Source: Candidatus Latescibacterota bacterium
GTDB taxonomy: Bacteria > Latescibacterota > UBA2968 > UBA8231
DNA: 64,000 nt
Assembly: GCA_965223905.1 (NCBI GenBank)
Contig: CBDCXV010000009.1
Span: forward strand, 480,001 to 544,000
Direction of reading: 5' to 3'
Translations under genes and position numbers: made by a program
Shown: one piece after another, positions 39,651 to 58,940 of the stretch
Numbering within the stretch: the stretch's first letter is position 1
How the letters are laid out: each line of letters opens with the position of its first letter
The notes under the pieces: model-generated
Databases searched by the model: none
The model's input: the letters and a program-made list of their open reading frames with translations, nothing else
Told to the model about the DNA's origin: nothing

Positions 39651-39682
39651 GCCGGAGATCACAAGAAAAAAGGAACGACACC

Positions 39683-40810
39683 ATGAATGAGGAAAACCGA
39701 GACGACCGACTGCATCTTCCTAGCCTGTCAATTACCGGGTTCCGGGGGATTGATGCGCTCACCGTTGAGCGGTTGGGACGCGTGACGTTGCTGGCGGGGA
39801 GGAACAGCGTAGGCAAAACGACTGTGCTGGATGCGGTCCGGGCCTACGGGGCCCGGGGTCACCTTGATGTGTTGTCCAAGATGCTGGAAAGCAGTGAAGA
39901 GGTGGCTACACGTGTTAACGAGAGAGGTCAAGAGACGGTTGGCCCATATTGGGAGGCGATCTTCTACGGACGGGATGCTTCCGATGGGGCCACCTTATCG
40001 ATAGGCCCAAACAACGATCAGAATCGGCTTGAAATTGAAGCCGTCCGCCCAACAACGCTCCTTGCTGCTTGGCAAATCAGGTCACGTGGAATTCCGACAC
40101 GCAGTCTCAAATTTGTATTTCAAGGAGAGGAACTAGGAGAAACTGGACTATTCTGCCCTTACGCTTTGAGTACAAAAGTCTCCAGGAGCCGTCGCGTATA
40201 CCAATCATCAGGATGGACTTTTGGAAAAGTCCCCGCCGAAATTACGTGCGAGTCCATAGGACCTGGTCTGTTGAACAACAACGAGATCCTTGAACGCTGG
40301 AATGTAATCGCATTAACTGACGATGAGGACCGGGTGGTGAATGCTTTGCAGCCCATCCTCGGCGGCGAAGTGAGTCGCATTGCGATCATCGGAGATGAAA
40401 AATACGATTCACGAGCAGTGGCGAAGCTCCAGGGGCAGGAGTTTCCAGTACCCCTCAGAAGCTTTGGTGACGGCGCCCAGCGTTTGTTCGGCGTCGCTTT
40501 GGCCATTGTCAACAGCAGGGACGGATTTCTGCTCATCGACGAAGCGGAAAACGGCATTCACCACTCCGTGCAGCGCGATTTCTGGCGCATGGTGTTGCTG
40601 GGAGCTCAAGATAACAACGTGCAGGTCATTGCGACGACGCACAGCTACGACTGTGTGCGCGGCTTTGCACAAGCGATGACCGAGTGCGAAGGGATCGAAG
40701 GGGCGCTCGTCCGCATTGAACGCGAGGACGGACACCTGCGCGCGGTCGAGTATTCAGAGCGCAACCTCAAGGCCATTGCCAAGCAACCCACTCCTGTTGA
40801 GGTGAGGTAG
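39683..40810 (+). CDS. ABC/AAA_15/21-type ATPase
   Basis: 'GFRGI', Walker A GRNSVGKT, signature SFGDG, Walker B LIDEAENG, TTHS. Confidence 0.85.
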   Translation: MNEENRDDRLHLPSLSITGFRGIDALTVERLGRVTLLAGRNSVGKTTVLDAVRAYGARGHLDVLSKMLESSEEVATRVNERGQETVGPYWEAIFYGRDASDGATLSIGPNNDQNRLEIEAVRPTTLLAAWQIRSRGIPTRSLKFVFQGEELGETGLFCPYALSTKVSRSRRVYQSSGWTFGKVPAEITCESIGPGLLNNNEILERWNVIALTDDEDRVVNALQPILGGEVSRIAIIGDEKYDSRAVAKLQGQEFPVPLRSFGDGAQRLFGVALAIVNSRDGFLLIDEAENGIHHSVQRDFWRMVLLGAQDNNVQVIATTHSYDCVRGFAQAMTECEGIEGALVRIEREDGHLRAVEYSERNLKAIAKQPTPVEVR

Positions 40811-40814
40811 ATGT

Positions 40815-41420
40815 ATGCCTGGTAAGGACCGCGTTCTTCTCGTCGAGGGGCCGGATGACGAGCACGTCGTCCGGCATCTTTCCATTCGCCACGAAGGGAT
40901 GCCCCAATTCTGCATTCTGCAGAAGGAAGGAATAGAAAATCTGCTCGATTTCATGGGCTTGGAGATTCTGGAACCCGGCCGCAGGGCCGTCGGTATCCTC
41001 GTGGACGCCAACGAGGATCTTACCGCTCGGTGGAGTGCTGTCGCCAACAGGCTTCGAGAGGAACATATCGAGGTGCCTGACGGTCCCGAGACAGGCGGCA
41101 GCATTGTGGACGGCTCTCCACGAATTGGCATCTGGTTGATGCCGGATAATTCTTCGCCAGGGGAGCTCGAGGATTTCGTCTCGGAAATGATCCCCGCCGA
41201 CGATCCAGTTTGGCCGTTAGCCCAGGACTACATCGACGGAATACCGAGGGAAGACCGGAAGTTTACCGAGAAAAAGATTCAGCGGGCAAAGCTCCATGCC
41301 TGGCTGTCAACCAGGGAGGATCCCAGACCGATGGGTGTCGCCATCCGCACGGGGGATTTGAGGGTGGATGGAAAACTCAGCACAACATTCGCGGACTGGC
41401 TGCGGAAGCTGTTCAATTGA
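40815..41420 (+). CDS. DUF3226-like TOPRIM-fold protein, partner of the upstream ATPase
   Basis: 'LLVEGPDD...VDAN...WLMPDN..GELED...KLHAWL'. Confidence 0.75.
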   Translation: MPGKDRVLLVEGPDDEHVVRHLSIRHEGMPQFCILQKEGIENLLDFMGLEILEPGRRAVGILVDANEDLTARWSAVANRLREEHIEVPDGPETGGSIVDGSPRIGIWLMPDNSSPGELEDFVSEMIPADDPVWPLAQDYIDGIPREDRKFTEKKIQRAKLHAWLSTREDPRPMGVAIRTGDLRVDGKLSTTFADWLRKLFN

Positions 41421-41445
41421 ATTGGTTTGGTACCAGTACCACATC

Positions 41446-42675
41446 ATGAGTTCTGCTGAACTGAATCTTGCCCGCCGACTCCGGCTCGGAGATGACTCGC
41501 CTCTGGAGGTCATGCGCGTCCTGCTGTCCGGTAGCCTCGTCACCAGCCCGGACCGAAACGAACTGGCCGACCAGCTCGCCGCCTTTGCCAACTCACGTGG
41601 GGGAACCCTCGTCATGGGAGTGGACGACGCCACCCACGAGGTTCTGGGCATCCCATTGGATTCCCTGGATGCGGTGGAGACCTGGGCCCGTGAAATCTGC
41701 AACGATTCCGTGAAACCCGCGCTCGACGTCGACATCCTGAAGCTCGAATTGCCGGACACTTCCGGAACACTCGTTCCGGTCGTCCGCATCGAGGTCCCCC
41801 GCGGCCTGTTCGTTCACGAGAGTCCGGGCGGATACTTCCACAGGACGGTCAGGTCGAAGCGAGAAATGGCACCCGATGTGCTGGCCCGGCTCTTCCACGA
41901 ACGCAGCCAAGGCGGTATGATCCGCTTCGACGAATCGCCGGTGCCCCGCACCGGGCCGGGCGATCTCGACTATTCCCTTACTCGCCGGTTCCTGCGGGAG
42001 GATTCTCAGGAGAGCGTCAACGAGGCGGCGGCACGAAAGCTCCGCCTCGTGGCCGATGACCAGGACGACGTCGCGCGACTCACGCTCGCCGGCGTTCTGC
42101 TGGGTACGCCCGAGCCGCAAAAGTGGCTACCCCACGCCTGCATACAGGCGGTCAGCTATGCGGGTGAGCGCACCGATGCCGACTATCAGACCGACGCCCG
42201 GGACATAGGGGAATCGCTCGACGAGCAGGTTGCGGAAGCCCTGTACTTTGTGCGGCGGAACATGCTGGTGCGGGCGACCAAGACGACGGCCCGGGTCGAG
42301 TGCCCGCAGTTCAGCGAACGGGCCGTTTTCGAGGCCCTGGTGAATGCCGTGGCTCACCGCGACTACTCCGTGGCAGGTTCCCGGATTCGTCTGCATCTCT
42401 TCGGAGACCGCCTCGAGCTCTACGTCCCCGGTGCCCTGGCGAATACCCTCTCGCCGGACAGTCTGCACCTGCGGCAGGCCAGCCGGAATGAACTCATCGC
42501 CTCCCTTTTGGGTCGCTGTCCTGCGCCCGGCGGTTTCGGCCGGACGCATTTGATGGACCGCCGCGGCGATGGCGTGCGGATTATCCGGGAAGAGTGCAGG
42601 CAGCTTTCGGGCCGCCTTCCTCAATACAACCTGGTTGACGACATCGAGTTGCGGTTGGTGATCCGGGCGGCATGA
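41446..42675 (+). CDS. Second Schlafen/AlbA_2 plus HATPase_c_4 domain protein
   Basis: 'LAAFANSRGGTLVMGVDD', 'EALVNAVAHRDYS...DRLELYVPG...SRNELI'. Confidence 0.82.
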   Translation: MSSAELNLARRLRLGDDSPLEVMRVLLSGSLVTSPDRNELADQLAAFANSRGGTLVMGVDDATHEVLGIPLDSLDAVETWAREICNDSVKPALDVDILKLELPDTSGTLVPVVRIEVPRGLFVHESPGGYFHRTVRSKREMAPDVLARLFHERSQGGMIRFDESPVPRTGPGDLDYSLTRRFLREDSQESVNEAAARKLRLVADDQDDVARLTLAGVLLGTPEPQKWLPHACIQAVSYAGERTDADYQTDARDIGESLDEQVAEALYFVRRNMLVRATKTTARVECPQFSERAVFEALVNAVAHRDYSVAGSRIRLHLFGDRLELYVPGALANTLSPDSLHLRQASRNELIASLLGRCPAPGGFGRTHLMDRRGDGVRIIREECRQLSGRLPQYNLVDDIELRLVIRAA

Positions 42676-43160
42676 AGCTCTCTACCATCGGCTTCACCAG
42701 GAAACCTGCCCGCCGATTTTTCGAACTACTCCGTCAGTCGGGCGCAAAGCGTGTCGTCGACGTGCGGCTCAACAACGGGTCGCAGCTCGCCGGTTTCACC
42801 AAGAAGGATGACCTCCCCTACTTTCTCGATAAGCTTTGCGGCATGGAGTATGTCCACCTTCCCGCGCTGGCCCCGACGAAGGAGATCCTCGACGACTTCA
42901 AGAAGCGGAAGGGCGACTGGAAGACCTACGAGGACCGCTTCCTCGCCCTGATGCGGGAGCGGCGGATCGAGGAGACGGTCCCCAGGGAGATCGTCGCGGA
43001 CGGCTGCCTGCTGTGCAGCGAGGACAAGCCCCACCACTGCCACCGGCGTCTCGTTGCCGAGTACCTGAACGAGCATTGGGGGGGGCGTCGAGATCTCCCA
43101 CCTCGGATAGAGGCATGGCATGATACCCGCCTCGGAAACATTCATACCGATCATGGTTGA
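42672..43160 (+). CDS. DUF488 family protein
   Basis: 'TIGFT...DVRLNN.SQLAGF...CLLCSE..PHHCHRRLVAEYL'. The natural end is probably TAG 43110 if the G8 run at about 43078-43085 is one base too long. Confidence 0.85.
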   Translation: MKLSTIGFTRKPARRFFELLRQSGAKRVVDVRLNNGSQLAGFTKKDDLPYFLDKLCGMEYVHLPALAPTKEILDDFKKRKGDWKTYEDRFLALMRERRIEETVPREIVADGCLLCSEDKPHHCHRRLVAEYLNEHWGGRRDLPPRIEAWHDTRLGNIHTDHG

Positions 43161-43443
43161 GCGCATCGTGGAGGGCTTCGCGCCTTACCGCGTAGTCCTT
43201 TTCGGCTCGCACTTGCGGGGCGCGACCCACAAGTGGAGCGACGTCGACTTGCTGGTGGTGTTGCCGAACGGTACCGATCAGCACCATGCCGCCGTCGAAA
43301 TCCACCGGGCCTTGGGCGATCTGCCGGTGGCCAAGGACATCGTCGTGACCACGCCGGAGGAAATCAGCCGTCGCGGTCACGTCATCGGTGGTGTGCTGTA
43401 CGCGGCACTGCGGGAGGGGGAAACCATCTATGAACGACCCTGA
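43120..43443 (+). CDS. Minimal nucleotidyltransferase (MNT) antitoxin
   Basis: 'LFGSHLRG....SDVDLLVV'. Confidence 0.88.
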   Translation: MIPASETFIPIMVERIVEGFAPYRVVLFGSHLRGATHKWSDVDLLVVLPNGTDQHHAAVEIHRALGDLPVAKDIVVTTPEEISRRGHVIGGVLYAALREGETIYERP

Positions 43444-43834
43444 GCGCCTCCGTGAAGGGCGTCGCTGGCTTCGTTTCGCGAGGGAGGATCTCGATGTGGC
43501 GAAGGAGTTGCTTGGCGGGCGACGAATCCGACACGCCTGCTTTTGCGCCCAGCAAGCGGCCGAAAAGGCGCTAAAGGCGGCGCTCCTGCTTGAGGGACTC
43601 GAGATCCCCTACATACACGATTTGAATGCCGTGCGGAACCGGTTACCTGATTCGTGGTCCGTGCGGAGCGAACATCCCGATCTTGCTGAACTCACGGTAT
43701 GGGCAGCTGAATCTCGGTACCCCGGGGATTGGCAGGAGGCCACAGCGGTCGATGCCGAACGGGCGGTGTCGCAGGCCGGAGGGGTCTACGACTCAATAGC
43801 GGCCGAGTTCGAGCAGCGCACAAACGCTGAATAA
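43430..43834 (+). CDS. HEPN domain protein (MNT-HEPN pair)
   Basis: 'WLRFAREDL...AQQAAEKALKA...HDL...SRYP'; overlaps the MNT end. Confidence 0.85.
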   Translation: MNDPERLREGRRWLRFAREDLDVAKELLGGRRIRHACFCAQQAAEKALKAALLLEGLEIPYIHDLNAVRNRLPDSWSVRSEHPDLAELTVWAAESRYPGDWQEATAVDAERAVSQAGGVYDSIAAEFEQRTNAE

Positions 43835-43875: not shown

Positions 43876-46800
43876 ATGGCAATCACGAACCACGAGCGCG
43901 TCGGCACGGCGATGGAGTTGCTCCGTCAGGGACTGGCCCCGTTCGTCGAACGCGAGCTGAACGACAAGGTCAAGAGGAACGCCGTCGACATGGACGTTCT
44001 TCGCCGCTTCGAGATCGACAAGCCGTACCGCGAGTGGGACGCCGCTGCCCTCCTCCGGCTGATGGGGGATAACTGGAGGGACGTCTTCAGCGACACCTTC
44101 GGCTACACAGAGCGCAGCCTGGTTTCCGAGCTGCGTGAATGGCGCAACAAGTGGGCGCACCAGGAGCGCTTCTCCAGCGACGATGCCGACCGCGCCCTTG
44201 ACTCCGCGGAGCGTCTTCTCACCGCGGTTTCCGCTCCCCAGTCGGCCGAAGCCGCAAAGATGAAGTTGGAGCTGCGCCGGCGGGTGTTCGACGAGCAGGT
44301 GCGTGGGGAGCAGCGCCGGGGCATAGGCGGGCTTGTCGAAGCCGTGGGCGACGGCGGGCTCAAGCCCTGGCGCGAGGTGGTGACTCCTCACGCCGACGTG
44401 GCAAGCGGCCGCTACCAGCAGGCGGAGTTCGCCGCGGACCTGGGGCAGGTGCATCTGGGCGAGGGCACGGACGAGTACCGCGACCCCGGGGAGTTCTTCC
44501 GGCGGACCTTCCTAACCGAAAGCCTGAAGCGGTTGCTGGCCGGCGGTATCCAGCGCCTCGCCGGCCAAGGCGGCGACCCGGTGGTTCAACTGCAGACCAA
44601 CTTCGGGGGCGGCAAGACCCACTCGATGCTGGCGCTCTACCACCTGTTCTCCGGGATCCCAGCGCGGGAGCTCACCGGCATGGACGAGGTGCTGGCGGAG
44701 GCGGGGGTCGAAATTCCCCGGGAAGTGCGGCGCGTGGTGCTGGTCGGCACCCGCATTTCCCCGGGAAATCCGGTGACCAAAGCGGACGGCACGGTGGTTC
44801 GCACCCTGTGGGGGGAGCTCGCCTGGCAGCTCGGCGGCAAGGAGGCGTTCGAGCGGGTGCGCGCCGACGACGAGCGGGCGACCAGTCCCGGGGACGTGCT
44901 GCGGGAACTGCTGAACGAGTACGGGCCCTGCCTGGTGCTGATCGACGAGTGGGTCTCCTACGCGCGCCAGCTTCACGACGACCCCGATCTGCCGGCGGGC
45001 AGCTTCGAGACTCAGTTCACCTTCGCCCAGGCCCTGACCGAGTCGGTGAAGCTCACGGGCAACTGCCTGCTGGTGATTTCGCTGCCGGCTTCCAACACCT
45101 CGACTCCCGATTCTCCCCATACCGAGGCGGACGACGCCGAGGTCGGGGGTGTTCGCGGGCGCGGCGCCCTGGACCGGCTACGCAACGTGCTGGGCCGGAT
45201 CGACTCGCCGTGGAGGCCGGCCAGTGCCGAGGAGAGCTTCGAGATTGTGCGCCGGCGGTTGTTCGAGCCTCTCGCCGGACCGGACCCCTTCACGCAGCGC
45301 GACGTCACCGCCCGCGCCTTCTCCGAACTGTATCGCTTACAACAGGTCGAGTTCCCCGCGGAGTGCCGCACCGCCGACTACGAGCGCCGCATCCAGACGG
45401 CTTACCCGATTCATCCCGAGATCTTCGACCGACTCTACACGGACTGGTCCGCCCTCGCCAAGTTTCAGCGCACCCGAGGGGTGCTGCGCCTGATGGCCGC
45501 GGTGATCCACAGCCTGTGGGAGCGGGGGGACCGCAACCCGCTGCTGCTGCCCTCCACCCTTCCCATCGACGACGACCGCGTGCGCAACGAGCTGACCCGC
45601 TATCTCTCCGACAACTGGAACCCCGTCATCGACAAGGACGTCGACGGCCCGGGCTCGCTGCCGGTCGCCATCGACGGGAGGGCGCCCAACCTCGGCAAGC
45701 TCTCCGCCACGCGGCGGGTGGCGCGCACCGTCTACCTCGGCTCCGCCCCCACTACCGCAGCGGCGCACCGGGGCATCGACGACTCCCGGGTCAAGCTCGG
45801 CTGCGTCATGCCGGGAGAATCCCCGGCGGTGTTCGGCGACGCCCTGCGCAGGCTGGCCGCGGAGGCGACCTATCTCTACCAGGACGGCCCCAGGCAGTGG
45901 TACGCCACCCAGCCGACGGTCACCAAGCTGGCCGAGGACCGGGCCGAGCAACTGGCCGGCAACCCCGACGCGGTCGCCAGGGAGCTGGAGGAGCGGCTGA
46001 AGAAGGACCTGCGCAGCACCGGGGACTTCGACCGCATCCACACCCTGCCCCGCTCGGGGGCGGACGTGCCGGACGACCTCGACGCGCGGCTGGTGGTGCT
46101 CTCCGCGGAGCATCCCTGTTCGCGGGATCCGGACAATGCGGCGGAGGTCACCGCCCGGGAAATCCTCGAGTCGCGCGGCAGTACACCGAGACTGTTCCGC
46201 AACACCCTGGTCTTCCTGGCGGTGGACAAGGTGCGGTACCAGGACCTCGACGAAGCCCTGCGCCGGTACTTGGCCTGGGTGTCGATCCTCGACGAGAGGG
46301 AGGAACTCAACCTCGACCCCCACCAAGCCCGACAGGCGGAAACGCAGCTGAAGGCGGCTGACGACACGGTGACCGCGCGGCTGCCGGAGGCTTACCAGTG
46401 GCTGCTGGTTCCCGGGCAGGAAAGGCCGGATGCCGAGGTCTCCTGGGAAGCCATTCGTCTGACTGCGTCAGGGGCATTGGCGGAACGGGCAGGCAAGCGG
46501 CTGCGCAACGAGGAACTGCTGGTAGCCGGGCTCGGGGCGACCATCCTGCGCAAGCACCTCGACGAGGTGCCCTTATGGCGCGGGGGGGATCACGTGGCGG
46601 TGCGGCAGCTCGTCGAGGATTTCGGCCGGTATTTGTACCTGCCACGCCTGCGCAACACCGAGGTTCTCACGCGCGCCGTCCAGGACGGGGTCGCTTTGCT
46701 GACCTGGGAGTCGGATTCATTCGCCCTTGCCGAGAGCCAAGACGAGGCCGTTGGACGCTACCGCGGTCTGCAGGCGGGACAGGCGGTCGGAATTTCCCCC

Positions 46801-47187
46801 GAAAGCCCGGCCCTGCTGGTCAAGCCGAAGGTGGCCCGCCGGCAGCTCGACGCGGAGGTGCCGCCCACGCCGGCGCCGGCTCCCGAGGGTCAGGAGGAGG
46901 TACCACCTGGTACGGATGGGACTGAGCCGCCCCCGCCGCCGCCCGAGAAGAAGGCGCGACGGTTTCACGGGGCCGTGACGCTGGACGCCACCCGGGTAGG
47001 CCGAGACGCCGGCCAGATCGCCGACGAGGTGATATCCCATCTTTCCGGCCTGGTCGGATCGGAGGTTACGGTCACCCTGGAGATCGATGCCGAGATCCCG
47101 GAGGGGGCCCCGGAGAACGTCGTGCGCACGGTCACCGAGAACAGCCGCACCCTGAAGTTCGCCAGCCACGGGTTCGAGGAGTCGTGA
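43876..47187 (+). CDS. Swt1-like HEPN plus DUF499 AAA+ ATPase; core gene of the restriction-like system
   Basis: N-terminal RNKWAH (Rx4H), 'PWREVVTPH.DV', Walker A QTNFGGGKTH, Walker B LIDEW, 'YPIHPE', 'FQRTRGVLRLMA'. Confidence 0.92.
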   Translation: MAITNHERVGTAMELLRQGLAPFVERELNDKVKRNAVDMDVLRRFEIDKPYREWDAAALLRLMGDNWRDVFSDTFGYTERSLVSELREWRNKWAHQERFSSDDADRALDSAERLLTAVSAPQSAEAAKMKLELRRRVFDEQVRGEQRRGIGGLVEAVGDGGLKPWREVVTPHADVASGRYQQAEFAADLGQVHLGEGTDEYRDPGEFFRRTFLTESLKRLLAGGIQRLAGQGGDPVVQLQTNFGGGKTHSMLALYHLFSGIPARELTGMDEVLAEAGVEIPREVRRVVLVGTRISPGNPVTKADGTVVRTLWGELAWQLGGKEAFERVRADDERATSPGDVLRELLNEYGPCLVLIDEWVSYARQLHDDPDLPAGSFETQFTFAQALTESVKLTGNCLLVISLPASNTSTPDSPHTEADDAEVGGVRGRGALDRLRNVLGRIDSPWRPASAEESFEIVRRRLFEPLAGPDPFTQRDVTARAFSELYRLQQVEFPAECRTADYERRIQTAYPIHPEIFDRLYTDWSALAKFQRTRGVLRLMAAVIHSLWERGDRNPLLLPSTLPIDDDRVRNELTRYLSDNWNPVIDKDVDGPGSLPVAIDGRAPNLGKLSATRRVARTVYLGSAPTTAAAHRGIDDSRVKLGCVMPGESPAVFGDALRRLAAEATYLYQDGPRQWYATQPTVTKLAEDRAEQLAGNPDAVARELEERLKKDLRSTGDFDRIHTLPRSGADVPDDLDARLVVLSAEHPCSRDPDNAAEVTAREILESRGSTPRLFRNTLVFLAVDKVRYQDLDEALRRYLAWVSILDEREELNLDPHQARQAETQLKAADDTVTARLPEAYQWLLVPGQERPDAEVSWEAIRLTASGALAERAGKRLRNEELLVAGLGATILRKHLDEVPLWRGGDHVAVRQLVEDFGRYLYLPRLRNTEVLTRAVQDGVALLTWESDSFALAESQDEAVGRYRGLQAGQAVGISPESPALLVKPKVARRQLDAEVPPTPAPAPEGQEEVPPGTDGTEPPPPPPEKKARRFHGAVTLDATRVGRDAGQIADEVISHLSGLVGSEVTVTLEIDAEIPEGAPENVVRTVTENSRTLKFASHGFEES

Positions 47188-47506
47188 CAAGGCCCGACAC
47201 CGCTGGTAGCACGAAGGGAGAGACAGCTCTACATATGAAATCGCGGTCTCCTCGCAGGTGGGAAAAAGGCCGAGGATGGGGAAGCCATGCAAATCCCGTG
47301 GCAGCGTTGGGCGCATTGATTGAGAGCCAAAAAGGTGCTTTATCTATACTCTTGTATCATGGATCCGTGGTCTCAGCCCAGCCAAGCGATACGCTCCCTG
47401 CTCCCACGCTTTTTGCTAACCTCGACGGTTGTCGTTCAAAGGGCCGGGTTAGAAGTTGCGTCGGTTGGGCCCATCAAGGAGGAAGGCTTTGGACTTGCTA
47501 GGGAAC

Positions 47507-49354
47507 ATGTACATCGAACGAGTGCAGGTAGACGAAGGCTTTCTCGACGGTCTGGACCTGCGGCTGGCCCGAGGGCTCACTGTGATTATCGGCGCCCGCG
47601 GAGCGGGGAAGACCTCACTTGTGGAACTCGTCCGGTTCTGTCTCGATGTAGGAAGCTTCACCGATGAGGCTGGTCAGCGAGGGTACCAGCAGGCGCTGTC
47701 CGTTCTCGAAGGTGGGCAAGTTACGGTGACCCTGAGCGATGGGCACGAGCGCACCACATTCGTAAGGTCAGCGTCTGACTCGTTGCCGCGGTCGACTTCA
47801 AGGCCGCCTGATGTGACGATCCTTGCGCAAGGAGAAATCGAGGCTGTCGGCGCCCAAAGGGGTGGGCGCCTGCATCTTGTTGACCGGCTTGTTCCGGAGC
47901 GACGAGACTTTCACCGAAAAGCCGAGCACCTGAGAACCCAGATTAAGTCCATCACAGTCGAGATCCGAGATCTGCTGATCGAAGTAGACGACATGGAAGG
48001 AGCCGTTGGTGAGGAACGGAACGTTCCAGAGGAGCTAGCGAAAGCTCTGGAGCTAGAGGCTTCAGCCCTCAAATCCGTAGAGGCGACGGAAGCGGATAGA
48101 AAGCAGCTTGCCTCCTTGCAGCAAGCATCCGCGCAAACGAAGGTGCAGCAGGGGGTGTTTGAACGCGCTTTGGAAGAACTGGAATCACTGGATGCTGACC
48201 TAGTGGGGATTTCTAAACGTCCGATTCTAGCGGAGAGTTGGCCTGATTCAGCAGGTGGGCAGGATATGCTTTCACCGCTGCGTGAAAAGGTCGTCAGTGC
48301 TCTTGACCATTTAGATAAGGCGAGGCTGGTAGTTGCTGCAAGTATCCAGGACATACAGTCGCATATAGAGGATGGCATTGAGAAGACAATCAGGACAGAC
48401 CAAGCATCTCGCGAGATTCGGAAACGATTGGACCAGTTAGAGGAAGGTATAGGTGCGATCACCCGGAGGGTGGAGGAACTTCGCGAGAAGTCGGGTCAGC
48501 TCTCGGCGCTTAGCCAGCGATTGGTCGAGAAGCGTGCGCATGCGGTCTCCCAGTCAGGACACCGAAACGAGCTATACCGTGCTCTAGATCGTCTGCGTCA
48601 GGAACGCTTCGACAGCCGATTAAAGGTCGCAAAGTCCCTCACAGACGAGCTTGGACCTGACATTCGGGTCAGGGCTACCCGATCAGAGCAGACAAGACCC
48701 TATGCTGAAGCCATTATCGGTGGGCTTCGAGGAAGCGGCCTGCACTACAACGCGCTTAGTCCGCAACTCGCTGCTACCATGTCTCCACTGGAACTAGCCC
48801 AAGCTGTCGAAACAAGGGACCCCGAACCAATTGCAGAAGCAGCAGAAATACCGAGAGGTCGGGCGATGGCTATCATTCAGGCTCTAAAAGAAAGTGATTT
48901 GGCAAGCATCGTAGCGGCGCCGATTGACGACGGTATCGCACTTGAACTTCTAGACGGGTCCATATACAAGAATAGTGAGAATGTTTCAATCGGACAGCGC
49001 TGCACAACAGTTTTGCCGGTGCTCTTGGGCCAGCATGGAGGAATCCTCATGGTTGATCAACCAGAGGATCATTTGGACAATTCCTTCATCACTACTACGG
49101 TAGTAACTGCACTTAAAAAACGAGATCCAGGAGACCAGTTGATCTTTGCTTCACACAATGCCAATATTCCAGTATTGGGCAATGCAGATTCGATTGTAGT
49201 GCTCGACTCTGACGGAAAACGCGGTTTCGTAAAGCATACCGGCCCCCTTGAGGACAAGGAGAGCGTGCGAGCAATTACGGATGTCATGGAGGGAGGTGCC
49301 AAGGCGTTCGCGCGGCGGGCAGAATTTTACGGTGGTGATTTCGGTAGAGACTAA
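47507..49354 (+). CDS. SMC/ABC-type coiled-coil ATPase (Ppl/TrlF-like, no PHP domain)
   Basis: Walker A GARGAGKT, long coiled coil, 'SIGQR', 'VDQPEDHLDN', 'SHNANIPVLG', 'MEGG..AF.RR'. Confidence 0.85.
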   Translation: MYIERVQVDEGFLDGLDLRLARGLTVIIGARGAGKTSLVELVRFCLDVGSFTDEAGQRGYQQALSVLEGGQVTVTLSDGHERTTFVRSASDSLPRSTSRPPDVTILAQGEIEAVGAQRGGRLHLVDRLVPERRDFHRKAEHLRTQIKSITVEIRDLLIEVDDMEGAVGEERNVPEELAKALELEASALKSVEATEADRKQLASLQQASAQTKVQQGVFERALEELESLDADLVGISKRPILAESWPDSAGGQDMLSPLREKVVSALDHLDKARLVVAASIQDIQSHIEDGIEKTIRTDQASREIRKRLDQLEEGIGAITRRVEELREKSGQLSALSQRLVEKRAHAVSQSGHRNELYRALDRLRQERFDSRLKVAKSLTDELGPDIRVRATRSEQTRPYAEAIIGGLRGSGLHYNALSPQLAATMSPLELAQAVETRDPEPIAEAAEIPRGRAMAIIQALKESDLASIVAAPIDDGIALELLDGSIYKNSENVSIGQRCTTVLPVLLGQHGGILMVDQPEDHLDNSFITTTVVTALKKRDPGDQLIFASHNANIPVLGNADSIVVLDSDGKRGFVKHTGPLEDKESVRAITDVMEGGAKAFARRAEFYGGDFGRD

Positions 49355-49359
49355 GGCCG

Positions 49360-50298
49360 GTGGATAGGCGCGAAGCACTTGAGCTATTGTCCTCAGAAAG
49401 CGCTTTCGACAGATTGCGCGCTGCACGCATTTTGCGCCATCTTGCTGTCTCATCCTCAGATAGAGCCCTCATTGAAGCCGCTCACCGGACCGAATCGGAT
49501 GCGTGGGTACGTTCTGCTCTCTCGAGGATCACAAGCCACGATCCGAAAGCACCCTCGGGGAAAAGTCCAGAAGAGCAAGTCGTAGAGGATGGAACACTGC
49601 TTGCCCATGACATTCGAGCACAGACCACCCAAGAGTTAACGGCGATGGTTGCCCATGAACTCGACCCACTCCTCGGGACGCTTCGTATGTGTTGTATGAA
49701 GGAGATATCCAGTTTCGAGGAGAGTGAGACTAAGCGATCCATTGCTGGCCTCGAGTCCTTTCTTAAGGCCCTGCGAGGGCTCTACAAAGCATCCGGAGTA
49801 CCCTCGGTCAGCGACTTTAGCCTTAACGACGTTGTGTTTGATTCAATCGAAACGGTTCTAGAAGAGCGACGGCAAAATGCAGCGGAAGAGATAAAGGTGG
49901 AAGCGGCGCGAAAGGATTATGTGGGGACACTAGGAGATCCCGATCTAGTCCGTCTTGCCCTCGTCAACATTCTTCGTAACGCCTTAGAAGCGAGCGACTC
50001 AACATCGGGAGGACAGGGACTTCCCGTGGTAGTCAACTGGGGTTTCACTGAAAGAGACGCTTGGGTATCGGTCTTGGACGAAGGGGTTGGCCTTCCACCG
50101 GGGGCATCTGGCATGGTAAAACCCGGTGTAACGAACAAGGACAAAGGTGCTCATTCTGGCATGGGTCTGCCCGTGTGCATCAGGGCACTAAAAGGGCTGA
50201 ATGGTGCGTTGGCTCTTCGACCACGCGAGGGTGGTGGAGTGGTCGCGGAGATGCGTTGGAAGGGAGATGAAGGGAAAAATGCGGGTGCTTCTAATTGA
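49360..50298 (+). CDS. Soluble sensor histidine kinase with HEAT-like N-terminus
   Basis: H-box VAHEL, N-box NILRNALEA, G1 DEGVG, G2 SGMGL. No transmembrane stretch is evident. Confidence 0.85.
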   Translation: MDRREALELLSSESAFDRLRAARILRHLAVSSSDRALIEAAHRTESDAWVRSALSRITSHDPKAPSGKSPEEQVVEDGTLLAHDIRAQTTQELTAMVAHELDPLLGTLRMCCMKEISSFEESETKRSIAGLESFLKALRGLYKASGVPSVSDFSLNDVVFDSIETVLEERRQNAAEEIKVEAARKDYVGTLGDPDLVRLALVNILRNALEASDSTSGGQGLPVVVNWGFTERDAWVSVLDEGVGLPPGASGMVKPGVTNKDKGAHSGMGLPVCIRALKGLNGALALRPREGGGVVAEMRWKGDEGKNAGASN

Positions 50299-51697
50299 GG
50301 ACGAGGAGGCCACAATCCGACAGATCCGCGCCCGCTTGCAAACCGAATGCCAAGCTAATGTCAAACTCGCACGAAGCAGGGACACTGCTATCGAGATTTT
50401 GAAAGGGAACGAGGATTTCGACTTGATCGTCTGTGACTTGAGAATCCCGACACGAGACGGATCGTTGGACGTAGACCAGGAACACGGCCTCCGGGTGCAT
50501 GATGTAGCTCGTACAGAGCATCCCGGCACCTTCACGATCTTTTTCAGCGGATTTGTAGAGCTTGAAAATGTAGGTGCAAGACTGTCTGCCGGCCCGTCTC
50601 TGGACGTCTTCGCCACAGGAGAAGAATGGCCGCTTGTAGACGCCCTCCTTAAATCGAAACAACCGGAGTTTCTTCAGTGGGCTACCAAATTGAGTATGAG
50701 ACTCAGGGAGGTAAATCAAATCAATATCCTTCAACCCAATATTTGCCTCACTAACGAATTCGCGTGGAGGACCTTACGCATCTATGCGAAACGATTGAAT
50801 GGAACAGAGATTGTTTCTGAGAGCCTGGGCGGTCTGTCAGGCGCGAAGGTACTTCGAGTCGAGATTTTGGACGGGTCACAAGCCTCTGTAGGATTGGTAG
50901 TTGCGAAGGTGGATCTACTCGTACGAATTGAGGACGAGCTTGTTCGCTATCGTAGGCATGTGGCACCGGTTCTGCGGGTCGGAACATTTGCTCCGCTAGC
51001 GGGCGAAGTCCTCCACGGATGTGGTCGGTTCGGAGCAGCCTTCTACAGCCTCGCTGCGAATGGATACAACGACCTTTTCTACCTGTCCATCACTGATGAC
51101 GCTGCTTCTCAGAAGGCGGTGTCTCTACTCCGCAAATCTCATCGTCAGTGGCGAGGCAATACTGGTAGCTCGAACGTATCCGTCGGCACCGTAAGGTCTT
51201 CTTGCATATCCGATGAACAGCTTGCTCCGTGGAGGGACGACCTTAGTCCAGACCGCGTTGAGGAGGCAGAGGCAATCACGATCTCCATGAAGCAATCTAT
51301 CCAACACGGAGATCTGCACGGCCTCAACGTGCTTGTCGATAGCGAAGGAGGACCTCTAATTATCGACTACGGCAACTTTGCCCGGCACCCAGTGGCACTC
51401 GATCCAGTGACACTTGAAATGAGCTTCGTATTTCACGCCGAACATCCTGAGCTTCATGGATGGCCGTCTATTGAGCAGGCGTCACGCTGGTTTGATCTAG
51501 CCGAATACGTTCGCGGTTCGCATCTCAAGGAGGTAGTCGGTGCTTGCCGCCAGTGGGCAGAATCCGATACCTCCCGACCGGAGTTGGCGGCAATCGTATA
51601 CGCTCATGCAGTACGGCAGCTGAAATATGAAGATACCAATAAAAGTCTTGCCCTTGCCATTGCTAAAGCCGCCATGGCAGAGCTGATTGGCGAGTAG
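50267..51697 (+). CDS. Response-regulator receiver domain fused to an APH/protein-kinase-like (TCAD9-like) phosphotransferase
   Basis: REC motifs VLLIEDEE and DLIVCDLRIP. Kinase motifs GGLSGAKV, VAKVD, HGDLHGLNVLV and IIDYG. Confidence 0.85.
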   Translation: MKGKMRVLLIEDEEATIRQIRARLQTECQANVKLARSRDTAIEILKGNEDFDLIVCDLRIPTRDGSLDVDQEHGLRVHDVARTEHPGTFTIFFSGFVELENVGARLSAGPSLDVFATGEEWPLVDALLKSKQPEFLQWATKLSMRLREVNQINILQPNICLTNEFAWRTLRIYAKRLNGTEIVSESLGGLSGAKVLRVEILDGSQASVGLVVAKVDLLVRIEDELVRYRRHVAPVLRVGTFAPLAGEVLHGCGRFGAAFYSLAANGYNDLFYLSITDDAASQKAVSLLRKSHRQWRGNTGSSNVSVGTVRSSCISDEQLAPWRDDLSPDRVEEAEAITISMKQSIQHGDLHGLNVLVDSEGGPLIIDYGNFARHPVALDPVTLEMSFVFHAEHPELHGWPSIEQASRWFDLAEYVRGSHLKEVVGACRQWAESDTSRPELAAIVYAHAVRQLKYEDTNKSLALAIAKAAMAELIGE

Positions 51698-51721
51698 TTA
51701 GCTTCCTCACTCCGAACAGGT

Positions 51722-52098
51722 TTATTCGCGTTCAAACCCTCTTGGTCGAATAAGACAAGCTTTTCCGAGGAAACTACTCCAAATAACTATAGGACATAAT
51801 GTATGCGTATCCTTGAAATCGTGTTGCAAGCCGAAGGTATGGCTCAGTTCGTGGGCCACCGTCGTAAAGCTCGCACTTCCCCCTATAGAAATAAAGGCAC
51901 GATTTTTAACTCTCGGCCATGGCGCTGAGCGCACCTCAAGATTAGGCAGCACCCTGAGGATGGTTTGCATGTCCCTCGACAGAGCATCGTAGTACTGGTG
52001 GACCATCCTGCATCCAGAAAAAAACGTGTATCCTGCAGGGTCAAAATGGAGATCTCAGGGGAAGATCGGAACAAGAAGGACAGGACAGCAAATACCAA
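51722..52098 (-). pseudogene. Degraded fragment of a zinc metallopeptidase gene
   Basis: HELSHTFGLQHDF (HExxHxxGxxH) in a short ORF; the region is broken across frames. Confidence 0.45.
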
Positions 52099-52343
52099 AA
52101 TGAATCACCCTTTTCTCTGCCTGTCCGGCGGTCAAAGAATGGGTTCCATCCCTCCTTTCTGTTGCCGGCAAGTGGGAGCATTGACAGGGGTCCGGCTGGC
52201 GGTAATTTATCCTACGCGACCGAATCTTCATCCGAGTAAGGATTGATCACACCCTCGTTGTATTAGAGAACTGTAACTGGGGCACTCAACCACTTATCTT
52301 TTTCAGGTTTTGTTAATCAATAGTTGAACGCTTAGGTGACAAG

Positions 52344-53099
52344 ATGGCTAGGAAGCCACCGCCAGGACGATGCGTACATTGTAGAGCTGAGGTCAAGCAC
52401 CTGACTTGGGATCATGTGTTCCCCAAGGGGTGGTATCCGGGGAACACGCCTCCGAACATGGAGAAGTGGAAAATTCCAGCGTGTAGTCCGTGCAACTCGA
52501 GGTATGGGTGCATTGAAGACGACCTCGGAATCGTCATTCCCCTTTGTCTCGGACCCGACGCACCGAACGCCACAGGATTGTACCAGAAGGCCCTACGTGC
52601 TATCGATCCATCCCATGGGCGAAATCACAGAGACAGAGTGAATAGGAGGAAGAAACGACAGAAGCTCTTTCGGAGTTTGCTCAAGGGTCACGAGATTCCC
52701 AACGCTGTGTACCCAGGATTTGAGGAGAGATGGAACAGGGCTAAGTCGGATCAGGTTGGCCTTCCTGTTCCGGTAGATCACCTGAAGCAATTGGTCGTGA
52801 AAATAGTAAAAGGCATTACGTACATAGAGGATCGGATCTACCTAAATGAGCACACACAGATTGAGCACCATGTAGTAAAGCCAAGCATAGCCGCCCCACT
52901 CGAGAAAGCCGTGAGGGTGCACGGCGAAATACACTCTCGAGAACCTGGAATAGAAGTCGTCCGCGCCGTTACACCGGACGATGGCGTCTCTGCCCTATAC
53001 AAGATCACAATCTGGGGGAGGCTAGTAATGTACGCGACGGTGAAAAAAGGCCTTCAACCGGACGCTCCAGTGGACTCATCACAAGCTTCCTGCCTCTAA
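52344..53099 (+). CDS. HNH endonuclease-like protein
   Basis: CVHC...TWDHVFPK...PACSPCN. Confidence 0.75.
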   Translation: MARKPPPGRCVHCRAEVKHLTWDHVFPKGWYPGNTPPNMEKWKIPACSPCNSRYGCIEDDLGIVIPLCLGPDAPNATGLYQKALRAIDPSHGRNHRDRVNRRKKRQKLFRSLLKGHEIPNAVYPGFEERWNRAKSDQVGLPVPVDHLKQLVVKIVKGITYIEDRIYLNEHTQIEHHVVKPSIAAPLEKAVRVHGEIHSREPGIEVVRAVTPDDGVSALYKITIWGRLVMYATVKKGLQPDAPVDSSQASCL

Positions 53100-53114
53100 G
53101 GCCTTTCCACGAAT

Positions 53115-53522
53115 TCACGGGACTACTACGGCGGCGCTCTTCGGTCGGCAACACCTCAACTTTTGACTCGTTAATTTCGTCGCGGGCTCGTGCCCTTGAC
53201 TGCACAGACCGCAGGCTGCCGGTACTGTGCCGATGTCGCCCATTCGGTGCCAGTACTGCAAGACGTTGATCACCAGAGCTGCCGAAGAATGAAGCGCCTG
53301 GATTTTGGGAATGCTTCCAGTTTGCGGCTTTAGTTCATTGCCGTGGCCTGCTTTCAAAGCGACCAGCGCTTCCTCAGACAACGGCTCGAACAGATTGTCC
53401 TTGATGTTGATGGTGTAGTTCGGATTTCCTTCGGCACTACTGCGGCCCTGTAAGGCTAGCCCATGGCGGTGCGCCCATTGCAGCTGCTTCGAAAGAATGT
53501 ACTTGCGGCCGTTCATACTCAT
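53115..53522 (-). pseudogene. Truncated restriction-endonuclease-like (PGN_0703-like) gene
   Basis: 'DNLF...G.GNEL...ALHSSAALVINV' N-terminal motif. The ORF ends before any catalytic core. Confidence 0.5.
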
Positions 53523-53797
53523 GGTCAGCTCTAAGTTCGAGGCAAACTATCCCTGCCGGTAGGAAAAATAAGGGTACCTATTTGGACTCTCGGTCAGGCG
53601 CTGAGAGCACCGCAAAGGTCAGGCAGCCTCCCTGACGATCGTTTGGAGGTCCTTCGACCGAACTCGGAATACGGTTTTGTATTTTGTCGGCCTCCGTATC
53701 AGGATCTATCCGGGCATGTGGGGTCGTTGAGAGCACACCCACCCCTACGGCCAACCCCGGGGTCCGGCCCCGGCCCCGGTTTTTTCTGCCGGCACTG

Positions 53798-54357
<560 letters not shown>

Positions 54358-56525: not shown

Positions 56526-56728
56526 GAAGTGCTTGCACAGGGTTCGTCAATATCCCCGCTCTCTAAAAAAACCGTCAACCAAAGCGTTATTCTCGCTGCC
56601 GCCTACCCGATAGCCGCCCAAGAAGAAATAAGGGACCGCGCCGCGCCGGCACATTTCGCCGGCATACTGTGCTGTCAGCAGATGCTGGATGACCTTGTTG
56701 AGAATGCCAGTGACCGGACAGGTGTCCT

Positions 56729-56830
56729 CGGAAAGCTGAGCACCCACTGGCGCACCGGCACCCGGGGCAGCACATCGTCGACCCGGCGCGCCGCCGTATC
56801 GGCCATGCGCCGGCTGCAGCAGGGGGGGCA
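56729..56830 (-). mobile_element. Remnant of an IS91-family transposase zinc-binding domain
   Basis: Translates to CPPCCSRRMADTAARRVDDVLPRVPVRQWVLSFP, matching the IS91 'CPSC..RRM...A..LVD.VLP..PVRQWVLS.P' motif. Confidence 0.7.
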
Positions 56831-57476
56831 GGAGTGGCCAATGACAACAGCTCCGCAACTCTCCTCGCCATCTCCGCAAAGTACATCACTTCCTCCGGTG
56901 ACAGCGCCCGCCCGAGCACATCGCGTTCCCGGTAGGACACCCATTTCTTGAGCACCTGGTAGCCGCCGAGCTTGTAGCCCCAGATCGCAGCGGGGACGTT
57001 GCGCCAGAAAGCGCGGTCGTTCAGATAGACGTCCAGAGTTCTTGCGCCGAGGGTGGTTATTGAATTACCGAGCGCGGCGCGTTCCTCCGGGGTGTACTCG
57101 CGTTCGACGATGCGGCCCTGTCCCGGCATCACCGCTTCGCCGGTTCCGTAGTGGCCCCACCCTGCTGTATTCGCGAAGTCGTCGCCGGTCATGTTGCGAC
57201 CGTCGGTGGTGGAGGGCACAGCTATGGCGGCGACCTCCGGGCGCAATGCGCCTTGGGTAACGCTGGGAACCGGCGTGTCGGGATCGAGCAAGGGTGCCAG
57301 TTCGCGGCCCCGTGCCGCTGATGCAGCGAGTGCCTCTGGTGCGCCGTCAGCTTCGCCATCGGGCCAGCCCGGCAGCGGGATTCGTGGCCATTCCATGCGG
57401 AGCGCCCCGGCGTTGGCTTTGCGGTAAGCGGGATCGTGGAGGGTGGCGAGGACGTGGTGGAAGAGGTCTTCTAAAT

Positions 57477-58940
57477 GGCTATATACGGGTTTTTCAACGT
57501 GGTATTTATAGCGTTTCCCCAATGAGATTTTTAGGGTTTCATACTGTACGGAATCGGGCCGGAATCTGCGCAGGGATATCGAGGTCTCCGACGCACAGGT
57601 AAATCAGGTCGGCAAAGGCATCCAGAGTTTTAAATCCACTGGCTCGATTCTTGACCATGCGGATAATGCGATTGAGCCCTTCGGCGGCGGCGTTGGTCAG
57701 GTGCGTGTCGACGAAGGCGGTGATGCCGGCCGCCTGCTTGCGCACCGTGTTGACGAACTTGCGCAGGGGCTGCAGGCGGCTGCGCAGGGCCGCCGTCGTC
57801 CACTTCTTGAGGAAGCGTTCGGCGGCCCAGCGCGCCTTGTAGCGCCAGAAGTGCTCGAACTCGTCCTTCAGGCGCCAGGCGCGGTAGATGCGGCGGTTGG
57901 CCTTCTCCAGGGTTTGGAGCGTGCGCCGATCCTTTCGCGAGCGCTGGGCGGAGTGATGCAGCAGCACCCAGCGCAGGCCCTTGAGCAGCTTGCGGTCCTC
58001 GCCACAGGCTTGCCGCCACTGCTCCTTGCGCACCTCGTCGACGGCTTCGTTGAGGGCCTTGACGACGTGGAATCGGTCCAGGACCAACTCGGCGTTGGGA
58101 CCATGCTGCCGGATGGCGCCGATGAAGGTCTCGCTCAGGTCGCAGCAGGCCCAGCGGATGCGGTCCTTCTGGAAGGCGCTGAGATGGTCCCGGAAAAACG
58201 CGTCGATGGTCTTCCGTGCCTTGCCCTTGCCGACCCAGACGACACGGGAGCGTTCCAGGTCGTAGACCAGGGTAGCGTATTTATGGCCCTTGGCGTAGGA
58301 GATCTCGTCGATGCCGAGGGTCTTCAGCCGGCGGATGCGGTGCCCCGTACGCCGGCGCTCGATGAGCCGGTGCAGCTGGTCGGACAGGGTCGACGGGGCC
58401 AGACCCAGCAGGCGCGCGGCGGCGGCCTGCGTCATCCACTGGCAGTACCTCAGCAGCAGGTATTCGAAGCGGTAGCTGACCTGGGCCGAGGGCGCCGCCC
58501 AGGGCACCTCCTCGACGCGACGGCCGTGGGTCGGGCAGCGGATCTCCCGAGGGGCGTGGTGCAACCAGAGGGTACGGCCGCAAACGCGGACGTCGCGCCA
58601 GCGGCGGAACTCCATGACCTGTACGATCTTGCCGCGGCGCCCACACTCGGGACACCGGCACCCGTTCCTTTGGGGCTTCACCGCGACCACGACGGCCGCT
58701 TCTTCCCCGTGTCCTTCGAACCACACGCCCACCGCGCGAAATCCCTTGAATTGGAACAGCTTGGAGACGAACTTCATAGCGGTCATAGGTCGCCTTCCCT
58801 TCCCTTTCTTGGGGAGTGCTTGATGGGGATACACCAAGCATAGGGAACGACCTATGGCCTTGTCATGTACTCAGATGGACAGCAAGGGCTCAGGTACTTT
58901 CCGTACTTACGTTTCGGCGTTGAAAAACCCGGATAGACCC
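57477..58940 (-). mobile_element. ISL3-family insertion sequence, copy 3 (1464 bp)
   Basis: Same IRs; target duplication TTCTAAAT at 57469-57476 and 58941-58948. Confidence 0.95.
57539..58786 (-). CDS. ISL3-family transposase
   Basis: Translation identical to the other two copies. Confidence 0.95.
   Translation of the reverse strand: MTAMKFVSKLFQFKGFRAVGVWFEGHGEEAAVVVAVKPQRNGCRCPECGRRGKIVQVMEFRRWRDVRVCGRTLWLHHAPREIRCPTHGRRVEEVPWAAPSAQVSYRFEYLLLRYCQWMTQAAAARLLGLAPSTLSDQLHRLIERRRTGHRIRRLKTLGIDEISYAKGHKYATLVYDLERSRVVWVGKGKARKTIDAFFRDHLSAFQKDRIRWACCDLSETFIGAIRQHGPNAELVLDRFHVVKALNEAVDEVRKEQWRQACGEDRKLLKGLRWVLLHHSAQRSRKDRRTLQTLEKANRRIYRAWRLKDEFEHFWRYKARWAAERFLKKWTTAALRSRLQPLRKFVNTVRKQAAGITAFVDTHLTNAAAEGLNRIIRMVKNRASGFKTLDAFADLIYLCVGDLDIPAQIPARFRTV

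Follow-up and report, generated by a model that had tools for sequence, protein, structure and literature searches.

Do a coiled-coil ATPase, a soluble histidine kinase and a receiver-kinase fusion encoded side by side form a single signalling system, and does that system serve in defence? The question is raised by a locus of Candidatus Latescibacterota bacterium (assembly GCA_965223905.1, contig CBDCXV010000009.1, positions 480,001 to 544,000 of the forward strand); we call this whole stretch of 64,000 nucleotides the window and count positions from its first letter. A first-pass annotation, made from the letters and a list of open reading frames (ORFs), had proposed that three genes of the window form a phosphorelay-gated defence operon, in which the ATPase senses infection and phosphotransfer from the histidine kinase (HK) to a receiver domain (REC) switches a toxic kinase. 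The ORF list places these genes, hereafter the trio, as follows, SMC standing for structural maintenance of chromosomes and aa for amino acids.

47507..49354, + strand: SMC/Rad50-like ABC ATPase, 615 aa (ORF open from 47456)
49360..50298, + strand: soluble HK, 312 aa
50279..51697, + strand: REC-kinase, 472 aa (alternative starts 50267 and 50201)

The trio is a real, widespread though rare mobile cassette, and we conclude with high confidence that it constitutes one functional ATPase-HK-REC-kinase signalling module. Our favoured reading, to which we assign a probability of roughly 0.55, is that this signalling cassette, self-contained and moved horizontally between genomes, defends against phages or plasmids.

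The tight, co-oriented linkage described earlier is borne out. The ATPase and HK genes are 5 bp apart, and the HK and REC-kinase genes overlap by 32 bp if the latter begins at the ATG at 50267, or by 20 bp from the start at 50279, the equivalent of which opens an identical database protein of 472 aa. The cassette measures ~4.2 kb. Its proteins, at 615, 312 and 472 aa (the family medians being 615, 302 and 476), are all full length, in agreement with the claim that the genes are free of lesions, and none of the three has a membrane-spanning hydrophobic stretch.

Conservation of the trio as a unit

At least 192 relatives of the REC-kinase, typically ~470 aa long and with the same two domains, are present in a large protein collection, and a pattern scan of one genome for each of 185,579 species found 131. 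Loci were gathered by receiver-kinase searches only: we took the best 80 of the 131 relatives, 75 of which had at least 2800 bp upstream and form the informative set. By tblastn, 67 of the 75 loci have the ATPase and then the HK upstream, with strand and order unchanged; two more (L021 and L024) carry an ORF of the HK cluster, which brings the trio loci to 69. Order and spacing are kept at these 69 loci over at least seven phyla. Clustering of 1137 flank ORFs yielded three recurrent families (in 78, 71 and 64 loci), the next family occurring in 5 loci; because only these three recur, we take the system to have no fourth component and its flanks to be unrelated. A fourth conserved gene (a buffer receiver, an antitoxin or a nuclease) was found nowhere among the flanks of the 80 loci. 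The grouping proposed from the window is therefore one that recurs elsewhere. ORF calls look fragmented in L039, L063, L075 and L077.

The pairwise identities of the three proteins also correlate over 53 loci (Pearson 0.80-0.87, Mantel p 0.001), a result to which the relatedness of the genomes alone would contribute some correlation. When plasmids were searched with the ATPase, the ten best matches spanned the query from ~1-3 to 608-614, and all ten records also hold the REC-kinase; the other ~220 matches are TrlF-type genes, aligned over the C-terminal half only.

Two other arrangements were considered and rejected. Effector swapping, with the same ATPase serving another output, was not seen in the plasmid collection, the full-length ATPase matches listed all being accompanied by the REC-kinase. 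Nor does the trio belong to an Hma system with the adjacent HmaC gene, as HmaC is not linked to it elsewhere: tblastn of HmaC over the 80 loci gave one weak, distant, opposite-strand match (L028, 6e-06).

The six exceptions among the 75 loci, which are without the ATPase or the HK, are L011, L014, L041 and L058 (all four from Dehalococcoidia), L042 and L073 (a kinase fragment). At L011 (4703-9500) and L014 (4654-9400), both from Dehalococcoidia, a lone REC-kinase of the TCAD9 family has as neighbours a divergent OmpR-type regulator and a vWA-FHA protein, the latter recalling the vWA link of TCAD9.

Domains and conserved residues of the three proteins

The ATPase is of the SMC/Rad50 class of ABC ATPases, having invariant split-head motifs with a coiled coil between the lobes. 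Its AlphaFold2 (AF2) model, at a mean predicted local distance difference test (pLDDT) of 90.1, shows a split ABC head and long antiparallel helices (132-236 and 256-382), with low confidence at the coiled-coil apex (residues 237-255). Besides Q108, which is invariant among the 64 aligned family sequences, conservation is concentrated in the motifs listed here.

ATPase residues 1-126, AF2 model: head lobe
ATPase residues 132-382, AF2 model: coiled coil
ATPase residues 384-469, AF2 model: helical insert
ATPase residues 474-611, AF2 model: C-terminal head lobe
47591..47617, + strand: Walker A, residues G29-S37 (G29, R31, G32, G34 and K35 invariant)
48986..49069, + strand: ABC signature (S494, G496, Q497) and Walker B/D-loop (D517, Q518, P519, E520, D521), all invariant
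49154-49159, + strand: H-loop, H550 and N551, invariant

A Foldseek search with the model returned JetC of Wadjet as the best match (JetABC, 1.2e-10), with SMC heads, cohesin, Rad50, MukB and RecN, and LmuB lower down. AriA of PARIS gave a weak profile match (5.4e-4), and the PADLOC models of LmuB and AriA also matched weakly. The first-pass comparison with the sensor ATPases of PARIS, Lamassu and Ppl needs the correction that the fold is nearer to SMC, Rad50 and JetC than to AriA. In sequence, the ATPase matches the NCBIfam profile TrlF_fam_ATP (6.4e-69) over profile positions 294-944 of 944, and the Ppl profile at the C-terminus alone, from 730-738 (PADLOC Ppl, 3.8e-19); it scores below both curated NCBIfam cut-offs (233.7 vs 350 for TrlF and 77.3 vs 1000 for Ppl). 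From this partial alignment we conclude that the PHP part is missing, and Pfam found no PHP domain. The protein is a PHP-less relative of TrlF/Ppl, much as its C-terminus had been read before. Midway along the descending helix of the coiled coil, residues 314-320 (48446-48466) include an invariant G314 and near-invariant G316 and R320; this patch might serve as an elbow or for contacts.

The HK has three recognizable parts.

HK residues ~1-75: HEAT-like N-terminus
HK H99 (codon 49654-49656): phospho-accepting histidine of a divergent dimerization and histidine phosphotransfer (DHp) domain
HK residues 192-300: HATPase_c

Residues 6-72 match HEAT-like alphaRep proteins in a PDB profile search (E 6.7e-20), in which HK853, FixL and ZraS were matched as well. 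HATPase_c is the sole Pfam match of the HK in the window; over 61 family members Pfam found HATPase_c in all 61, HEAT_2 in 11, TPR in none and HisKA in none, and it is for want of a HisKA match that we call the DHp domain divergent. H99, N207, G267, G269 and L270 are invariant, while E100, D240, G242 and G244 (G1 box) are near-invariant. With its H-box histidine and its N, G1 and G2 boxes, the protein qualifies as a two-component kinase. The highest 19-residue Kyte-Doolittle mean is 1.2, with no hydrophobic stretch; this and the alphaRep match agree with the earlier description of a soluble HK with a short HEAT-like N-terminus. No PADLOC model matched the HK at E up to 0.1. The H-box of the family reads H-E-x-x-P/S, the HisKA phosphatase motif being H-E-x-x-T/N; on this motif the HK may be kinase-only, a suggestion to which we give little weight.

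The third protein joins a receiver to an enzyme.

Within 50279..51697, + strand: REC domain, residues 1-~145, with acceptor D53 (codon 50435-50437)
Within 50279..51697, + strand: TCAD9/APH-type kinase domain, residues ~160-472, with catalytic loop H343-N350 (51305-51328) and metal-binding D363

Its Pfam matches are TCAD9 (57.3 bits, cut-off 40), Response_reg and APH, with no DNA-binding domain, exactly the composition first claimed for it. Over 87 sequences E7, D8, K125, H343, D345, H347, N350 and D363 are invariant, and D53, K210 and E220 near-invariant. The His, Asp and kinase catalytic residues are thus invariant or nearly so across phyla: H99 of the HK, D53 of the receiver, and K210, E220, the HGD..N loop and D363 of the kinase.

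The AF2 model of the REC-kinase is confident (pLDDT 95.1; predicted template modelling score, pTM, 0.91), and its REC fold compares with 3crn_B at Z 16.3 and a root-mean-square deviation of 2.5 Å over 122 residues. Structural comparison of the whole model returned receiver domains and was uninformative on the kinase domain, which had no sequence-level match to solved structures, the REC part alone being matched. By Foldseek, the nearest solved folds of the kinase are glucosamine kinase, maltokinase, choline kinase, amicoumacin kinase and APH(3'), with methylthioribose kinase and the lanthipeptide kinase LxmK as further neighbours, all at 11-17% identity. Since these are small-molecule kinases, the target need not be a protein, and the modelled fold would weakly favour a small-molecule or peptide substrate over a classical protein-kinase substrate. 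In the ESM Atlas TCAD9 is fused also to STAS and to OmpR-type regulators, so that the kinase seems to be a reusable output module.

Predicted contact between the ATPase and the histidine kinase

We predicted complexes of the ATPase and the HK with a family alignment as each input. The pair reached an ipSAE interface score of 0.61 (runs 0.64, 0.61 and 0.60), none of the three controls exceeding 0.00, so that the modelling suggested by the first-pass annotation came out in support of a contact. In the calibration, which holds only roughly as the alignments were self-supplied, this score was attained by 58 of 80 complexes of known structure and by 2 of 110 mismatched pairs. At least 91% of the contacts are common to the runs, and the partner pLDDT is 72. 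In the model the ATPase would bind the HK through the HEAT-like N-terminus of the latter, HK residues 13-53 facing ATPase residues 357-372, 384-396, 423-429 and 441-445.

48575..48841, + strand: ATPase neck and helical insert, residues 357-445, predicted HK docking surface (complex model)

On the ATPase side the interface consists of the final turns of the descending helix of the coiled coil, together with the adjacent helical insert. Conserved residues lie in or next to it on both proteins: R23 and E45 of the HK, and R371, P427 and E429 of the ATPase, where L430 is conserved too. This coiled-coil base is also where SMC/Rad50 proteins are bound by kleisin N-domains and by the Mre11 helix-loop-helix, and the HK docking site may be analogous to theirs.

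Distribution and mobility

Among the 67 entries of the gene tree that come from genome loci, 26 are from Actinomycetota, 24 from Pseudomonadota, 10 from Chloroflexota, 2 from Acidobacteriota and one each from Nitrospirota, Campylobacterota and Melainabacteria. Tree and taxonomy agree only in part. The tree broadly splits the Actinomycetota and Chloroflexota from the Pseudomonadota and others, and yet pairs Pseudomonas with Phytobacter or Enterobacter and Campylobacterota with Nitrospirota, and places Frankia among proteobacterial entries. Copies of the trio are found in Pseudomonas, Enterobacter, Phytobacter and Leclercia.

The cassette was found in none of 60 relatives of the source genome (2 from its genus, 34 from its family and 24 from its class; E up to 1e-20). 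Its composition is also foreign: the GC content of the trio is 0.53-0.55 vs 0.69 in HmaC, and GC at third codon positions (GC3) is 0.54, 0.51 and 0.54 for the ATPase, HK and REC-kinase vs 0.87 in HmaC and 0.76 in the downstream glycosyl hydrolase gene. The trio is indeed less GC-rich than the DUF499 (HmaC) gene before it, as had been observed, and this composition together with the absence from the 60 relatives points to recent acquisition. The statement that it lies directly after that gene needs a correction: a 320-bp spacer separates the two, the HmaC stop being at 47187.

47188..47506, + strand: spacer from the HmaC stop to the ATPase start, GC 0.555 (read from the sequence)
~47190..53900, no strand: low-GC block (~0.48-0.59), borders approximate (composition profile and GC3)

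Within the spacer, upstream of the ATPase, there is a Shine-Dalgarno-like AAGGAGGA at 47477-47484, and the TTG at 47492 is a possible alternative ATPase start; around the trio the + strand showed neither a sigma-70-like promoter nor a terminator. The low-GC block consists of the trio and three or four small ORFs without family match, and is probably one segment acquired recently. Neither flanking repeats nor a border-marking integrase could be convincingly assigned to it. Of its small ORFs, those at 52344-53099, 53115-53522 (- strand) and 53578-53880 (- strand) match no Pfam or PHROG family except for a weak Endonuclease_7.

Plasmids carry the system as well, the REC-kinase being present in 47 of 72,556 plasmid records. 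The full trio was inspected on three plasmids: it lies between two VapBC pairs in Leclercia, after an AbiE-type pair and IS110 in Vibrio alginolyticus, and after Fic/VbhA and adjoining a relaxase in Rhodococcus. RefSeq names its products in these three plasmids 'AAA family ATPase', 'ATP-binding protein' or 'histidine kinase', and 'phosphotransferase' or 'response regulator'. Piscirickettsia plasmids account for 36 of the 47 REC-kinase records; the ATPase search found 34 Piscirickettsia records, and those shown were aligned at residues 475-610 only. On one Piscirickettsia salmonis plasmid (L084, 6434-8410) a truncated HK and an intact REC-kinase lie amid toxin-antitoxin genes and IS elements.

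Among 2.9 million IMG/VR contigs, two carry the full trio, in what are predicted prophages. On one of these (L087, 412-10232) the trio comes after a tail-spike chaperone domain gene, umuD/umuC and IS110 and before SRAP and chloride channel genes, and looks like cargo at the end of a prophage, ahead of host genes. The ORF lengths and positions of the Phytobacter locus L069 match those of L087.

At the other loci, phage integrase (5) and resolvase (4) are the commonest Pfam families among 129 immediate neighbours, and transposases, TraI and Mrr occur too, these counts being raw, taken without genomic background and hence suggestive only. PADLOC matches among the neighbours, at up to 1e-10, include DpdF, dCTPase, type II methyltransferases, PsyrT, SoFic and a type IV restriction enzyme. 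The contexts of the trio are variable and mobile or defence-rich.

Comparison with known systems

No PADLOC or NCBIfam model names the trio, and we found no paper describing such an ATPase-HK-REC-kinase trio in the openly searchable literature, subscription journals and supplements being beyond reach; within that range, the early remark that no named system has this architecture stands. Few defence systems are known to employ two-component phosphotransfer, Detocs and Ambrosia among them, and in these the kinase itself is thought to sense infection. Ambrosia is a different, five-gene system in which two-component phosphotransfer serves transcriptional control.

Detocs is the closest known system, and the trio is not a member of it. 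The first-pass annotation had left Detocs out. It is a proven defensive two-component system and a precedent for a phosphorelay gating a defence effector; the available part of its description reports that defence needs the His and the Asp, and gives a detection rule by which DtcA, DtcB and DtcC are all required (bioRxiv 10.1101/2023.01.24.525353). The likeness, as far as that text goes, lies in a soluble HK and an enzyme-output response regulator in a small mobile operon. There are differences too. DtcA senses via its own TPRs, whereas the HK of the trio has a HEAT-like stub of ~75 aa and a separate SMC-like ATPase; and DtcB is a stand-alone buffer receiver, of which the trio conserves no equivalent (the best extra family is in 5 of 80 loci). 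As DtcC is defined there, by REC with a non-DNA-binding effector, the REC-kinase agrees with it, but the TCAD9 kinase is not among the effectors that this part of the paper lists, which are PNP, REase, TOPRIM and transmembrane (bioRxiv 10.1101/2023.01.24.525353). Because two of the three defining genes fail, the TPR-bearing DtcA and DtcB, we do not class the trio as Detocs. The PADLOC models PDC-M60B and PDC-M60C match the REC part weakly; we suspect that PDC-M60 corresponds to Detocs.

With TrlF/Ppl the trio shares the ATPase body, covered by profile positions 294-944 and seen again in the plasmid TrlF genes, which align from residue ~250-350 to the end. The N-terminal PHP phosphoesterase, the presumed effector of Ppl, is absent from the trio ATPase, and the partners differ: TrlG (AlbA_2 + HATPase_c_4) and TrlR accompany TrlF, whereas the trio ATPase has the HK and the REC-kinase. 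For the TrlF locus of Photorhabdus, the portion of the study at hand describes a growth/temperature phenotype and not a demonstrated phage phenotype (bioRxiv 10.1101/2020.06.02.129163).

JetC (Wadjet), LmuB (Lamassu) and AriA (PARIS) resemble the trio ATPase in having an ABC head with an antiparallel coiled coil. In Wadjet and Lamassu the ATPase is a sensor or scaffold for a separate effector, and the same is said of PARIS in the part of its literature available to us. These ATPases hand over directly to nucleases, whereas the hand-over in the trio would pass through a His-Asp phosphorelay to a kinase. Homologues of kleisin, KITE, LmuA and AriB do not recur in the trio flanks.

The kinase itself is of the same family as TCAD9 (PF19974) of vWA-MoxR-VMAP systems, scoring above the gathering threshold. 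That family was named from effectors of these ternary conflict systems, going by the accessible part of the source (PMC10910872). The available part of a study of vWA-ternary conflict effectors includes among them an active, rare APH-superfamily kinase, possibly with low-molecular-weight substrates, and receiver domains, and states that histidine kinase domains were not seen in the vWA-associated effectors (PMC7159879). None of the 69 trio loci has vWA, MoxR or VMAP genes, the vWA-FHA protein being found beside the orphans L011 and L014 only.

What is new is most likely the combination of two-component-gated defence with an SMC-like sensor, in a cassette unnamed so far. Sensing in the trio seems to have been passed from the kinase to the SMC-like ATPase, and the output is itself a kinase. 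If this is true, the trio links SMC-type machines and His-Asp signalling, two protein worlds not known to communicate; a two-component relay coupled to an SMC-type sensor would be without precedent, as would a defence effector of the TCAD9/APH-kinase type with a defined switch, and phosphorylation by an APH-type kinase would join the chemistries of immune effectors. The trio may also help to explain the TrlF/Ppl ATPases, in which the predicted partner-docking region is present as well.

Proposed mechanism and alternative explanations

The mechanism that we propose begins with the ATPase, a presumably dimeric SMC/Rad50-type ABC ATPase with a coiled coil, which would hold the HK through its HEAT-like N-terminal domain at the coiled-coil base. 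A trigger, probably foreign DNA or a phage protein, would set off ATP-driven motion of head and neck and so alter HK activity. The HK would autophosphorylate at H99 and pass the phosphate to D53 of the receiver; these residues are conserved, and the chemistry is that of their families. The receiver would then switch the fused TCAD9/APH-type kinase, and this would phosphorylate an essential small molecule or protein, so that growth or phage replication stops. A new immune class of this kind, in which an SMC/Rad50-like sensor acts through a docked HK and a His-Asp relay on a kinase effector that stops the cell or the invader, is a tentative proposal whose chances we put a little below even.

Several observations weigh against a defensive role or against parts of this scheme. 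None of 50,697 phage records matched, nor did any of 5,426 complete E. coli genomes with the Leclercia copy as DNA query. Many neighbours are ordinary (HrcA, YchF, LysR, a sulfatase, a glycosyltransferase), and the neighbour counts are subject to the limit given with them. The nearest solved folds of the kinase, being metabolic and antibiotic kinases, fit a non-toxic role equally well; phosphorylation of D53 may either activate or silence the kinase; and the REC-kinase is alone in 6 of the 75 loci, so it can exist in other wiring. HEAT-repeat subunits occur in solved SMC complexes, and the ATPase-HK model, already subject to a rough calibration, may partly draw on its likeness to these.

Mobility is also what a maintenance or exclusion module of plasmids and mobile elements would show, one that is no phage sensor and whose kinase is a growth-arresting toxin restrained by the ATPase and HK, or that acts on competing elements. 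The 47 plasmid records with the REC-kinase are in keeping with such a role, as are the VapBC, AbiE-type or Fic/VbhA pairs and the relaxase or replication genes beside the inspected plasmid trios, the place of JetC of Wadjet, which acts on plasmids, among the nearest ATPase folds, and the integrases and resolvases that are the commonest neighbours. Most copies, however, are chromosomal, the trio has no conserved small neighbour resembling an antitoxin, an addiction module can usually do with less than three large proteins with intact catalytic sites, and carriage on plasmids is typical of defence systems too. We consider this explanation unlikely, if one to be taken seriously.

Slightly less likely still, in our judgement, is a non-immune stress or DNA-damage module, whose ATPase would report breaks or stalled replication and whose kinase response would be adaptive, not suicidal. 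In its favour, the ATPase fold is common to Rad50, RecN and SMC, metabolic small-molecule kinases come closest to the kinase in fold, one copy has umuDC and an SRAP gene next to it, housekeeping genes make up some of the neighbours, and the TrlF locus has a growth/temperature phenotype in the portion of that study at hand (bioRxiv 10.1101/2020.06.02.129163). A core stress pathway would nonetheless hardly be distributed so patchily, absent from 60 of 60 relatives and with 131 relatives over 185,579 species, or have foreign composition and variable flanks.

An inducible resistance determinant, with the APH-type kinase inactivating an antibiotic or toxic small molecule and the ATPase and HK as its sensor, seems improbable. 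It could draw on the Pfam APH match, on APH(3') and amicoumacin kinase among the Foldseek neighbours and on plasmid carriage; identity to any solved APH is nonetheless only 11-17%, and the kinase domain matched no solved structure at the sequence level. Moreover, no resistance kinase is known to us to depend on an SMC-like ATPase. TCAD9 was, furthermore, defined from conflict-system effectors, according to the accessible part of its source (PMC10910872). Chance adjacency, or an ordinary two-component regulator beside an unrelated ATPase, is already contradicted by the order and spacing kept in 69 of 75 loci over at least seven phyla, by an output domain that is an enzyme and not a DNA binder, and by a predicted ATPase-HK interface far above its controls, and can be dismissed as very improbable.

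The island in the window

In the window the trio lies in a defence island that also holds a Dsr1-like gene, two Schlafen-like genes, a PDC-M38 pair, DUF488/PDC-M45C, a HEPN gene, HmaC and a Type ISP fragment. The gene at 43876-47187 combines an N-terminal HEPN_Swt1 with DUF499 and matches PADLOC HmaC at 1138 bits. No Hma helicase or methylase gene is present among the annotated neighbouring ORFs (33438-43834), and the HmaC/DUF499 gene may be an orphan or belong to a different DUF499 arrangement. The Dsr1-like SIR2 gene is spread over two overlapping frames (33438-34652, 404 aa, and 34595-37384, 929 aa, with a 58-bp overlap), which suggests a frameshifted or split form, and the C-terminal fragment of a Type ISP gene (56587-57522) abuts an ISL3 transposase (57539-58837, - strand). 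The picture of an otherwise decaying island fits these two genes; the other island genes look intact.

There are no tRNA genes in the window. Two genes that combine AlbA_2 (Schlafen-like) with HATPase_c_4 (37439-38650 and 41368-42675), the same domain pair as in Photorhabdus TrlG, lie a few kb from the trio ATPase, itself a PHP-less TrlF relative. Three ORFs of 432 aa are found at 24005-25303 (- strand), 29756-31054 (+ strand) and 57539-58837 (- strand), the last being the ISL3 transposase. The first part of the window (1-21472) is occupied by very long ORFs on the + strand, of 2126, 1097, 2239 and 1179 aa.

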